This document shows, piece by piece, positions 18,776-59,443 of a stretch of 64,000 bases of DNA. The first letter of the stretch is position 1. Every line of letters starts with the position of its first letter. Made by a program: the position numbers and the translations under genes. This DNA is from Octopus vulgaris (lineage: Eukaryota): positions 98,456,001 through 98,520,000 of the forward strand of contig OX597822.1 in the NCBI GenBank assembly GCA_951406725.2, read 5' to 3'. The notes beneath the pieces were generated by a model that was not told where the DNA came from, searched no databases, and worked only from the letters and a program-made list of their open reading frames with translations.

Positions 18776-19344
18776 GATAAATCTCAGAGCGAGTTATAAA
18801 CAGTAGCGGTAACACATCGTGATGCATACTTGCCATTTGAATATGGCTAACCCATAAGGGTGGATGCTACTGTAGTTTGTAGCCCCAGGAAGATATCTCC
18901 TCCAGCTGGCTATAGACACACTATCTGTGTCCTCTCAGTATTTGTGAAGGGGAGTCATCCTCCCCGTCTTCAACACATGATACACACGTACCCGAGTTTC
19001 AAGGTGTTTACCTTTCTTTACCTTTCATCAGCGTGTGACAATCATGGTTGTCGATGAGAAGTCAGATCCCTTCACAAATACATATACTTTTTCCAGTGTC
19101 GATTTGACACTAATATTGAAAAAGTGAAATCAAACAATGATAAATCTCAGAGCGAGTTATAAACAGTAGCGGTAACACATCGTGATGCATACTTGCCATT
19201 TGAATATGGCTAACCCATAAGGGTGGATGCTACTGTAGTTTGTAGCCCCAGGAAGATATCTCCTCCAGCTGGCTATAGACACACTATCTGTGTCCTCTCA
19301 GGCACGTGTGTATCATGTGTTGAAGACGGGGAGGATGACTCCCC
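18773..19344 (-). mobile_element. Mini PLE-like / retrozyme-like element, 363-nt unit with 5' inversion
   Basis: Identical direct repeats 18773-18938 / 19136-19301 (period 363); 19304-19344 is the inverse of ~18949-18989; 3' end abuts (TA)n. Confidence 0.85.
18983..19037 (-). ncRNA. Canonical-core minimal type I hammerhead ribozyme
   Basis: CACACG-CUGAUGA-AAGGU(14 nt)ACCUU-GAAAC-UCGG-GUA^CGUGUG; perfect stems I (6 bp) and II (5 bp). Confidence 0.9.
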
Positions 19345-20370: not shown

Positions 20371-21459
<1,089 letters not shown>

Positions 21460-21779: not shown

Positions 21780-22165
21780 TCACTTCCACACACGCCAGCT
21801 GAATTTAATTCGTCCTTAGTCGAATGACACTTGTTAATATCCTGTTGTTTGCCTTTGTATTTTTGTATTATTTCTCCGTTTATACCGACCTTGCTTTCGT
21901 ATACATTCGCTGCTTTTTTCCAAGGAATCTAGTGCTCTTAGCTTACATTTCCCTTGGGGATGGCCAGATTGGAGCAGTCTCGAGTATAACCAACCGAAAC
22001 TGCAAAGATTATCTGGAACTCAACTGACGAATGTAAACTCAGAATGACACGTCCTTGTCTTTTCTTGTCCCTTTTTTTGTATCATCTAACTGTGTGGATG
22101 TTTTGTTGTCCCTTTTTCGTATTGTCTCACTGTCTGGATGTTTTGCGCTCTTGTCCCATTTTTGT

Positions 22166-24770: not shown

Positions 24771-24965
24771 TATACAAAAAGTTCTTTTTATATATATATT
24801 TATATACAAATAGATAGCGTTAAGCAACAATACCGAAAATTTAGAAATAGCAGTCAAAGACCGCTTGTTTCTATTTTCTACAAATATCTCTCCGCATATA
24901 ACATTTACTTGCAACTCACATACGCAAAAAGAAGGAAAAATAAAGAAAACAAACAGTTTCGGTCA

Positions 24966-25024
24966 GTTGTGGACGCGTTTCTGGGTTAGAATTATAAAGA
25001 ACTTATTCCCGTCTTCAGCACAAC
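24966..25024 (-). ncRNA. Minimal type I hammerhead in a decayed PLE-like element (~24810-25260)
   Basis: GUUGUG-CUGAAGA-C-GGG(22 nt)CCC-A-GAAAC-GC-GUC^CACAAC; perfect stem I, palindromic stem III ACGCGU. Confidence 0.8.
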
Positions 25025-25317
25025 ATTCCATTAAATAATAGATTTGCAAATGCTATTTACCTACCTCTTGCATCCCGACCTCACGCCATCGGAGTCAGCA
25101 CAAACCAAATCCATATAGACGAATGAATTCGTATTTTCCCTCAAAGATCACCATGTGTGTTACAAAAATAGTAACGCAGAAAGAGAACTGTGGTTTGTTA
25201 TAAGGGAGTGAAAAATTCTATTATTAATAATATAATTTTATAATAATATAGTTTTTAAATTAATAATTATTTACACTTATATTATAAATAATAGAATATA
25301 TATGCATATATATATAC

Positions 25318-26144: not shown

Positions 26145-26186
<42 letters not shown>

Positions 26187-26224
26187 CGCTGTCTTCGTCT
26201 GCCGATAAAGGCATTTTTTCAAAA

Positions 26225-26530
26225 TGCGCCAGCTAAACTTGTACTGTTTATTAGTCGTAAGGCAACCGCTGTTTTTGTCCTGTTTTTACCATTATTGTTT
26301 TTTGTATTTTATATTCGTGTGGCAACGTCCGTTTTTCTGTCCCTGTTTCGTATACATTCGATCCTTCTTCCAAGAAATCTAATGCTCGTAGCTTAGTTTT
26401 TCCTTGGGGCTGGCCGGATCGGAGCGATCTCAAGATTAATCAGCCGAAATTGCTAGGATGATCCGGTTCTTTTTTGTATCGTCTTCTAAATGTTTTACGT
26501 TTTTGTCCCAGTTTGTATTTTTCTACATAT
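26225..26530 (+). mobile_element. Copy of the 21780 family with partly deleted permuted hammerhead (26414-26471)
   Basis: GCG-AUC^UCAAGA...cagcc-GAAAU-UGC...UCUU, then the CUGANGA strand is missing. Confidence 0.6.
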
Positions 26531-27399
26531 AATATATATATAAACCTACATTAATGTACGCTCACATACACGCACTAACACACACATATATAATAATTTT
26601 GCAAAAGGAGGAGTGACAGCGACTTTGTCTTCGAATTTGAGCTGCTCTCTAATATTCTTAAATAGTCTCTAACAACAAAGAGAAGGTTGCGTATTACTTA
26701 CTGGAAGGTTTTCGAGAGATGCAGATCTTACGTCAGTGGTAGCAGACATGGACACTATAATACGATGGGAAATATTATACTAAGCCAGTGGTTCTCAACT
26801 GGGGTACATATAAGATTGCTGAGCTTACATGCGACAAAATAGTAAATTGGGGAACCGCAATTATATTTTAAGGGTCTCTGAGAAAGTTTGCTTTTGATGT
26901 ATGCATTGATATGTATTGCAAGAAGCAGTTTTGTTTCTCAAATCTTTTACATAGTTTATTATTGTTGAGAACCGCTGTACCAAACAGTTCCATACAACTT
27001 GGTGTTTGTTGAAACGCTAGAAGTGAAAAATTTCACGCCACCTGAATCAGTTCAAGCTACATTTTTACAGATTAGTCCCCATTCAATTTTACAAACAATG
27101 GTATCAAAGTATGTGAACAATTGTGCATTGAATACTGTTGGCCTTCTGGCGAAACTTGTTTCCTAAGTTTTAGTAACTTTAGTATTACGTATGTCCGACA
27201 CCAACCGTCTATTTCTCAAATTCTTTTGTTATCTGAGTGTAACAAATTGCTTGAAAAAGATGAAAACAGCATTATCAGAGTAGTAAATGGATATTATACA
27301 TATTGGAGCAAGAAGCGAAAGGTCTGCAGAGTGAAGCAAAAATGGAACAAATCGACATAGCAGTGACTACATGTGCATGTTTATATATATATATATATA

Positions 27400-55371: not shown

Positions 55372-56160
55372 AGGCGCAGGCGTAGCTATGTGGTAAGAAG
55401 CTTGCTTCTAAGCCAGATGGATCCGGTTTCAGTCACACTGTGTGGCACCTTGGACAGATGTCTTCTATTATAGCCTCGAGTGAGTTTACTAGACGGAAAC
55501 TGAAAGAAGACCGTCGTGTATATAAATGTGTGTGTGTTTAAGGCGGCGGGCTGGCAAAAACGTTAGCACGCCGGGCGAAACGCTTAGCGGTATTTCGTCT
55601 GCCGTTACGTTCTGAGTTCAAATTCCGCCGAGGTTGACTTTGCCATTCATCCTTTCGGGGTCGATAAATTAAGTACCAGTTACGCACTGGGGTCGATGTA
55701 ATCGACTTAATCCGTGTGTCTGTCCTTGTTTGTCCCCTCTGTGTTTAGCGACTTGCGGATAGTAAAGAAATAGGCATTTCGTCTGCCGCTACGTTCTGAG
55801 TTCAAATTCCGTCGAGGTCGACTTTGCATTTCACCCTTTCAGGGTTGATTAAATAAGTACCAGTTACGCACTGGGATCGATATAATCGACTTAATCCGTT
55901 TGTCTGTCCTTGTTTGTTCCCTCTATGTTTAACCCCTTGTGGGTAGTAAAAAATATGTATGTGCATGTGTGTGAGTGTGTGTGTATGTGTGTGTCTTTGT
56001 GTTCGTGTTTGTTCGCCACCACCGCTTGACAACCTGTTCGGCAACAGAAACCGTTAGAATAAGTACGAGGCTTTAAAATAATGAGTCCTACGATCGATTT
56101 CTTCGACTAGAACTCGTCAAGCTTGTACCCCGAGCGTAACCGTAGTCAATTTCACGGAAC
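55372..56160 (+). mobile_element. Old SINE A split by two nested tandem SINE B copies (55541-55774, 55775-55954)
   Basis: SINE A head 55372-55535 and tail ~55960-56160; the B copies sit in its (TG)n tract. Confidence 0.85.
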
Positions 56161-58108: not shown

Positions 58109-59098
58109 AGCTGATGAAGGGGAATTTTCCTTGTATTGTTTGTCCTGTACTCTGTTTTTTCGTTGTTAAAAAAAGTCCGTTTCCTTGTTTGATTTTATGT
58201 TTTCGTTTCTCGTTGTGTTCTACGTTTATTTGTGGTGTCCTGTACTCATATATGCAGGTATATATACATATAGATGTAAGTATATACATCTATATGTATA
58301 TATGCATATGTTTTATTTATCATATTGTTATTATATGACCGAACGCACGCGTTGTTTTCTCTTCTCCAAGTAAGTTTTTATTTGAATAATCATGACGCAC
58401 ACTCTTACTCTTTACTTGACCTTTCCTCCCTGCCTGTCTGTCTTCCTCTCTACCTGTCTCTCTCCTTCTTATTATTCACCCTTTCTGGTTTCTTTTCCTC
58501 TCTCTCTCTCTCCTCCTCCTCTCTCTGGCCGATGACCGGAGTGCTACTAAAACTTTCTTTCTGCCCGTGCTTTCAACAAGCCAACATCGACTTCTCTGTC
58601 TTTCGCAAGCCGATTTTTCACATGCGTTCTAACTAATTTTTCCACCGTCTAGGCTTTAAAAAAGCCTTTATTGTTGGTTTCCTTGTCCTGTTATTCTTTA
58701 TTTGTAGTTTTTTCTACTGTTTTTTCTTCATTTGTATTGCTTTTACGTCCTGTTCTTGTTACTTGTTTTACCCCTCTGCAAAATAATTTTATTTAATTCC
58801 TTTTGCAGGAAGGACTGTTTCGGCCGGGTCGTGTTCTGCCCTTACCTTCAAAACACGCATTGAGTCGAACCAGGGACAGCTGATGAAGGGGAATGTTCCT
58901 TGTATTGTTTGTCCTGTACTCTGTTTTTTCGTTGTTAAAAAAAGTCCGTTTCCTTGTTTGATTTTATGTTTTCGTTTCTCGTTGTGTTCTACGTTTATTT
59001 GTGGTGTCCTGTACTCATATATGCATGTACATATACATATAGATGTAAGTATGTACATATATGCATGTATATATACATATGTTTTATTTATTATATTG

Positions 59099-59139: not shown

Positions 59140-59321
59140 CGTACATATCTATGCATATACATACATACATACATACATACATACATGCATATATATATAT
59201 ATATATATATATATGAATATATGGGTACAGGACGTCACCAGCAGTAGACAACGAAATACGAAAATAAATGAGTTAAATAGGCAAATAAAGAGAGATAAAA
59301 AGGACAAGTAATACGGAGAAT

Positions 59322-59384
59322 GACCTTCGTCAGTTGTTGACTGATTATCTACTCCTCATTTCGAGCAATCAACGACAGTAGAGG
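59322..59384 (-). ncRNA. Degenerate third-family permuted hammerhead-like motif
   Basis: CCUC-uacug-UCGUUGA-uu-GCUC-GAAA-UGAGG-(13 nt)-UCAACAA-CUGACGA-A-GGUC. Confidence 0.4.
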
Positions 59385-59443
59385 CATACAGAGAAACCGA
59401 ACTAAAACAAACATGGAGGGTTGTTAGACCTGAACGAGGCGAA

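Follow-up and report, generated by a model that had tools for sequence, protein, structure and literature searches.

Among the hammerhead ribozymes described so far, the closest in layout to the motif analysed here is type SGC (HRIMA-1 and its variants; Eckert et al. 2023, PMC10085705), in which, according to the article text, the blocks follow each other in the order S-G-C around a full core, stems I and II are joined by a linker of typically 3 bases, and an extra helix connects the far ends of these two stems. The same text takes block C to be uninterruptible, i.e. the A9-G10.1 join to be unbreakable, and states that no known hammerhead alignment has more than 1-2 bases between CUGANGA and its stems. 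The type SGC RNAs reported there come from metatranscriptomes and metagenomes and not from the genomes of known organisms, with the exception of one GCS candidate. An extra base between A9 and G10.1 is described for the CChMVd (+) hammerhead, in which A or U is tolerated at this place and C or G is harmful (PMC1636495, PMC3705267). Among retroelements, the Naiad clade is reported to be without canonical hammerheads (Craig et al. 2021, PMC8557442), and the text and supplement of that work flag eight 'HHR_half_core' cases among Naiad, two of which are Naiad_Ovul and Naiad_Esco. Non-LTR retrozymes and Penelope pLTR hammerheads (bioRxiv 10.64898/2026.07.22.740005, PMC11167929) are presented in these sources as non-coding tandem units with one hammerhead each and a tie to Penelope-like elements, the hammerheads being of type I.

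The window is a stretch of 64,000 nucleotides of Octopus vulgaris DNA (GenBank assembly GCA_951406725.2, contig OX597822.1, positions 98,456,001 to 98,520,000), and searches extended to the genome, which is microsatellite-rich and comprises 2.8 Gb in 227 contigs. At 26185-26540 the window contains a repeat copy of what we call family B, flanked by (TA)n/(CA)n. The full family B unit is 830 bases long, non-coding, and occurs in tandem arrays. The window copy is a member, damaged by a deletion, of this high-copy repeat. The repeat is likely to be a non-autonomous Penelope-like retroelement, and a split-core S-G-C hammerhead is predicted in its intact members. Its parts are as follows:

26185..26540, + strand: family B repeat copy, 5'-truncated, non-coding (BLAST against the natural tandem unit in locus L028)
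26363..26369, + strand: predicted 5' strand of helix J (co-fold geometry); the bases after A9, with which it would pair, are missing from this copy
26370..26407, + strand: predicted hairpin P0, with its 3' end abutting G10.1
26408..26413, + strand: 5' strand of stem II, with G10.1 as its first base, upstream of the cleavage strand (pairs with 26440-26445; covariation across families)
26414..26420, + strand: 5' strand of the outer helix P, ccggauc (pairs with 26460-26466)
26423..26429, + strand: stem III strand and AUC triplet (AUC at 26427-26429), with the predicted cut after 26429 (sequence; 16.2-15.2 covariation; 5'-end footprint)
26430..26435, + strand: stem I strand after the predicted cut, UCAAGA (6/6 pairing with UCUUGA in intact siblings)
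26440..26454, + strand: block G, made of the 3' strand of stem II, GAAA (26446-26449) and the stem III partner (sequence)
26460..26466, + strand: 3' strand of the outer helix P, gauccgg (sequence)
26467..26471, + strand: deletion junction, 38 bases gone (alignment to intact locus L020)

In the proposed fold of intact members, the 5' half would run through the J strand, P0, the 5' strand of stem II, the first strand of P, the stem III strand with the NUH triplet, and stem I. The 3' half would run through a short linker, the 3' strand of stem II, GAAA, stem III, the P partner, the stem I partner, CUGANGA, and the J partner. The order of the strands of stems I, II, III, and P is shown by their sequence and covariation. 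It is S, G, C, in place of the circular order C, G, S found in types I, II, and III, and, as in type SGC, the core is full, stems I and II are separated by a short linker (3-5 bases here), and helix P takes the place of the extra helix. In contrast to type SGC, block C is split, and the piece of type SGC that consists of the stem II 5' strand and one half of the interaction helix appears to have moved to the 5' end.

Alignment to the intact locus L020 shows that the 38 bases following position 26469 are gone from the window copy; they comprise the greater part of the stem I 3' strand, all of CUGAAGA, and the helix J partner. The feature reported in the earlier note is real, and the copy that carries it is dead in cis, as that note had stated, because C3-A9 is absent. 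The deletion is sporadic: among 110 shortened copies, the same junction was found in 3 of 100 matches listed, the others showing scattered breakpoints, and an amplified subfamily with the deletion of the window copy was discarded on this count. The value of this dead copy lies in a prediction that was passed, namely that its undeleted siblings would carry UCUUGA-CUGANGA. UCUUGA-CUGAAGA is present in 15 of 17 central copies from loci L014-L030, which are partly dependent (five belong to a single tandem array, and another four are two pairs of nearly identical copies), and in the remaining two C3 is changed to U. Loci L001-L013 were excluded from this count as they too carry deletions. The UCUU stretch that had been read as the remaining stem I partner is ambiguous in its UU, which belongs to a 2-base microhomology at the deletion and can be assigned to either side.

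The sibling copy at 21964 (78% identity over 142 bases, E 2e-25) combines GUC with GAAAC and has ccagau/aucugg as its outer helix, whereas the window copy combines AUC with GAAAU (26446-26450). The paired changes between the two copies that had been listed for stem I, stem III, and the outer helix are all present in the sequence. A genome-wide pattern in which 16.2 and 15.2 were left free gave 5120 matches, compared with 0 for the reversed control, and a hand tally of 100 matches listed among them contained 93 A-U and 5 G-C pairs, 2 unpaired cases, and no A-C or G-U. The 24 stored complete copies of families A and B contained 15 A-U, 7 G-C, 1 G-U, and 1 G-A at these positions, with G-C/A-U and C-G/U-A swaps in helix P as well. 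The compensation at 16.2-15.2 is therefore real covariation, and it runs between subfamilies, so that it reflects a single change or very few changes passed on to many copies, and a Fisher test overstates its strength. The claim that GUC had become AUC was correct in that both pairings exist, but the comparison gives no direction to the change, because A-U is the majority form; both forms also occur inside family A. AUC was described as 'essentially absent' from natural hammerheads as of 2006, yet as fast once folded (PMC1636495, in its text).

A descriptor of the S-G-C arrangement found further families in the window and in the other loci. Three of the resulting 20 clusters, each consisting of one copy that was worn or chimeric (a truncated A, an A/B hybrid, and an F-type), were dropped, leaving 17 representatives that are related to each other (about six lineages, with 11 of the 17 being single copies). 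A strict version of the descriptor gave 2 matches in 400 kb of position-picked DNA and 2 in 10 shuffles of those 400 kb, with an upstream stem II of 5 bp in neither case. In addition to the family B copy, the window contains the following copies:

20692..20809, − strand: family D copy with the same wiring, unrelated helix sequences and a GUU triplet (descriptor search and sequence)
21913..22037, + strand: family A copy with every block present but decayed, with an A-A mismatch in stem II and C-A in stem I (sequence)
58774..58891, + strand: another family D copy, without G12 (bounds approximate, by eye)
59320..59400, − strand: decayed family E copy (approximate bounds; descriptor search and sequence)

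The core positions C3-U4-G5-A6-N7-G8-A9, G12-A13-A14, A15.1-U16.1, and H17 are present in the intact siblings and in all 17 representatives, which were selected by a descriptor of this core, and the triplets of the representatives are GUC, AUC, GUU, GUA, and AUA. The earlier note had expected CUGANGA to be followed by bases pairing with cagcc. This did not hold, as 0 bp are formed directly after A9 in 16 of the 17 representatives, and the base directly after A9 pairs with C11.1 in only one of them. A stem II partner of at least 5 bp is found upstream in 13 of the 17 (compared with 44 of 246 cross-lineage pairs), with fewer than 5 bp in the other four, and in each family the upstream strand lies 21-27 bases before the cut. 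In the window copy it occupies 26408-26413, just beyond the stretch to which attention had been drawn. Four unrelated stem II helices occur at this place (GGCUGG/CCAGCC, GAAGG/CCUUC, GAGCA/UGCUC, and GUGCCA/UGGCAC), and stem II opens with G10.1-C11.1 in 15 of 17 representatives, both exceptions being family K. Beyond A15.1-U16.1, stem III continues for 4 bp or more in 15 of 17 representatives, compared with 14 of 246 cross-lineage pairs. The upstream stem II strand runs straight into one strand of helix P, and the other P strand precedes the stem I partner.

Since the stem II partner lies upstream of the cleavage strand and not after CUGANGA, the chain opens between A9 and G10.1, and the motif is best described, from its sequence, as a type-SGC-like hammerhead opened at this join. 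It resembles type SGC but lacks the contiguity of block C, and it is therefore a variant and not a plain member of that type. The permuted model put forward earlier was thus right in its S-G-C strand order and in the compensations in stems I and III and the outer helix, but it misplaced the stem II partner. The plain type SGC arrangement of that model, with stem II formed by the bases after CUGANGA, can draw on GGCU located 5 bases past A9 in family B (4 bp) and on tail matches of 4-6 bp in several families. However, these matches lie at shifting offsets, in contrast to the steady upstream partner, and in family A the 20-32 bases that follow A9 provide at most 1 bp. Together with the lack of pairing right after A9, this makes the arrangement most unlikely. 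Families A and B also contain a GAAU-G.c.c-GUC motif 11 bases past A9, which could form an ordinary type I hammerhead with CUGANGA. This is scarcely credible: the motif is without A15.1, finds nothing to pair with as stem I, and does not occur in families D, E, F, G, and N. Such a hammerhead would also leave both the covariation and the footprint described below without an explanation, and an Rfam scan of the window gave no hammerhead match. In the window, this motif occupies 22042-22056 and resembles the remnant of an ordinary type I hammerhead. A hammerhead on the minus strand was rejected, as there is no CUGANGA on that strand.

It was also considered whether two tandem units of one transcript, or two separate molecules, complete the core of the motif in the manner of dimeric Penelope hammerheads. 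Arrays of 830-base units exist, and Penelope hammerheads are reportedly cleaved as dimers. Dimeric hammerheads are, however, driven by a short palindromic stem III, unlike the stem III of 5-6 bp found here, and a stretch of about 125 bases in a single unit is enough for all helices of the motif to close, so completion between units or molecules is very unlikely.

In the split-core fold, the A9-G10.1 bond would be replaced by a four-way junction formed by helix J, in which the bases after A9 pair with those just before P0, and by hairpin P0, which ends at G10.1. This geometry was obtained in 13 of 15 co-folds and in 40 of 174 cross-lineage co-folds (F3 included; K and K2 left out). By pair count (8 of 17, compared with 69 of 246 cross-lineage pairs) and by energy (−5.6 compared with −4.3 ± 2.3 kcal/mol in the controls), helix J is poorly separated from the controls, and in family B two U-U pairs lie at its junction end. 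For these reasons the four-way junction predicted to re-close the split core is moderately supported. In addition, P0 could stack on G10.1-C11.1, in the place required by the sheared G12-A9 pair, which would count against activity. In 16 of 17 representatives, A9 is followed by A or U. The insert of CChMVd (+), as described in the sources cited above, is a single base, compared with two predicted helices and the chain ends here.

Several variations were noted around this region. In subfamily C2 (L190, L209, and L210, near 1500), hairpin P0 is separated from G10.1 by 2 extra bases. The linker that precedes stem III in families A and B (window 26419-26425; L020 1590-1660) can pair with the tail 7-13 bases after A9 over 6-7 bp with G-U swaps; this pairing is absent from other lineages and is a possible switch. 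A polypyrimidine run followed by CAG that ends exactly at G10.1, resembling a splice acceptor, is found in the window at 20772-20790 (−) and in L087, L156, and L159; it occurs in families D, D2, E3, and G and not in A and B. Rejoining of A9 and G10.1 by splicing was rejected, as families A and B are without polypyrimidine-CAG and there is no GU after A9.

In an intact unit, self-cutting of the RNA would take place about 150 bases upstream of the unit's 3' end. On cut RNA, reverse transcription would run off at the cut and give rise to short solo copies, and uncut or re-ligated RNA would give full-length and tandem copies. The 5' ends of genomic copies were analysed with a pattern for B/C copies lacking G at −13, which gave 2381 matches; 100 listed matches were tallied by hand, the first 30 being checked by script. 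These 100 comprised 34 intact copies, 4 with internal deletions, and 62 truncated copies, which stand alone and are no longer than about 150 bases. Sixty of the truncated copies start between +1 and +17 relative to the predicted cut, one starts at −4, and one at −12/−13. The presence of 1 of 61 starts in the interval −11..−1 corresponds to p 2.4e-12 against an even spread, for the 100 matches listed of 2381. The highest peak among the matches listed is at +10 (14 starts) and not at +1 (7 starts), the mode at +10 lying beside the stem II strand, where the sequence AT matches the (TA)n target. A control pattern at −27..−12 contained 4-7 truncations in 100 matches listed of 575, and another at +18..+38 contained about 50-60 in 100 matches listed of 414. 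In a rough comparison among matches listed, as the three patterns were not normalised to each other for strictness, this corresponds to 84 ends per base behind the cut, at most 2.5 in −27..−12, and at most 12 in +18..+38. Subfamily C2 dominates the matches listed for −27..−12; its copies are often paired at a distance of about 780 bases.

These data bear on whether the fold cuts. A fold that is real but does not cut, being a relic or a protein-binding structure, could produce the pile of 5' ends through stalling of reverse transcriptase at the knot; the mode at +10 beside the stem II strand, the deviation of family K at 10.1, and the lack of a precedent found for a split core would fit such an explanation. 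However, among the matches listed the ends stop sharply at the scissile bond, with 7 at +1 and a single one across the 11 preceding bases, and the first obstacles at which stalling should occur are helices P and III (+18..+38), where ends are about sevenfold rarer. Moreover, G10.1-C11.1 and an H17 that is never G, the latter imposed by the descriptor, are catalytic constraints. A non-cutting fold is thus improbable. The boundary at the scissile bond suggests reverse transcription running off at a cleaved 5' end, which fits better than stalling, and the footprint suggests cleavage in vivo. From sequence and footprint taken together, hammerhead activity in the family is likely. Two further observations concern this region. 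In family K (L165, L169, L175, and L178, near 1500), all 4 copies examined apparently have A at 10.1, facing C11.1; this is possibly an inactive or deviant subfamily, which would provide a natural control for the 5'-end footprint. Some truncated copies join their own inverted copy close behind the predicted cut (G000:C1:111924504-111924555, and others).

The wiring of families A and B recurs in Naiad. The 3' ends of Naiad_Ovul and of the record preceding it in the supplement of PMC8557442 parse by eye fully into the same wiring, and that of Naiad_Esco does so with a worn stem II; it is absent by eye from the 3' ends of Naiad_Omin, Naiad_Adux, and Naiad-1_Skow, so three of the six records examined show it. 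The motif of the published Naiad_Ovul consensus has 473 exact copies in the genome, compared with 1 match for the control. In 32 genomic stretches around this motif there was no linked open reading frame (ORF), and the motif copies were only short. Naiad itself is characterised by an ORF with GIY-YIG at the N terminus and reverse transcriptase at the C terminus. In L224, near 5600, one of 20 Naiad-motif stretches, a copy starts at the predicted cut, right after (TA)n. Families A and B share with Naiad, as described in the parts of that work cited above, insertion at (TA)n, CUGANGA near the 3' end, and GAAA at a distance, the wiring of Naiad_Ovul being identical. They differ in that the half-core cases are given there without a fold, and in that A and B are non-coding and have only the architecture in common. 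Insertion at (TA)n and the tandem or inverted structures present here are common to other Penelope-like clades and are not diagnostic. Since families A and B match Naiad in architecture and not in sequence, we infer their link to Naiad from the published consensus sequences.

No coding parent of family A or B was found in the loci read, in which both are non-coding. Two ORFs were rejected as parents: that in L102 (2208-4202 +, 665 aa, with a C-terminal GIY-YIG) and that in L103 (minus strand, 542 aa, reverse transcriptase), as one is encoded on the other strand and has repeat ends of its own, and the second lies beyond an assembly gap and (TA)n. L102 and L103 contain two unrelated Penelope-like ORFs with C-terminal GIY-YIG that adjoin ribozyme copies. 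In the tandem non-coding units, the families resemble the non-LTR retrozymes and Penelope pLTR hammerheads introduced above; their motif, however, is not of type I and is no circular permutation of it. A point against the proposed cutting comes from an Anolis element, for which the text of PMC11167929 reports that no reads start at the hammerhead cut and that cleavage needs protein.

We lean towards regarding the motif as an active natural hammerhead opened inside its core, beyond the six-permutation scheme, which would be the missing Naiad ribozyme and whose germline cutting would set the 5' ends of thousands of insertions. A literature search covering the text, and some supplementary text, of largely open-access articles found no account of a split-core hammerhead. 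If correct, this reading would extend non-circularly permuted hammerheads from environmental RNA to thousands of chromosomal copies in an animal, and the A9-G10.1 join, assumed to be fixed, would be replaceable by a helical junction. It would also suggest how the 'half-core' Naiad cases may fold and allow cleavage in vivo to be read from genomic copies, which bears on the role of hammerheads in Penelope-like elements.

Three other elements were noted in the window. By eye, 24960-25025 (−) contains an ordinary minimal type I hammerhead (CUGAAGA, a long stem II, and GAAAC-GC-GUC), and 18975-19040 (−) contains an ordinary type I hammerhead with a 6-bp stem I and a GUA triplet; both went unreported by Rfam. 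At 55592-55955, a tandem pair of 184-base units was found, which we take to resemble an octopus tRNA-derived SINE.
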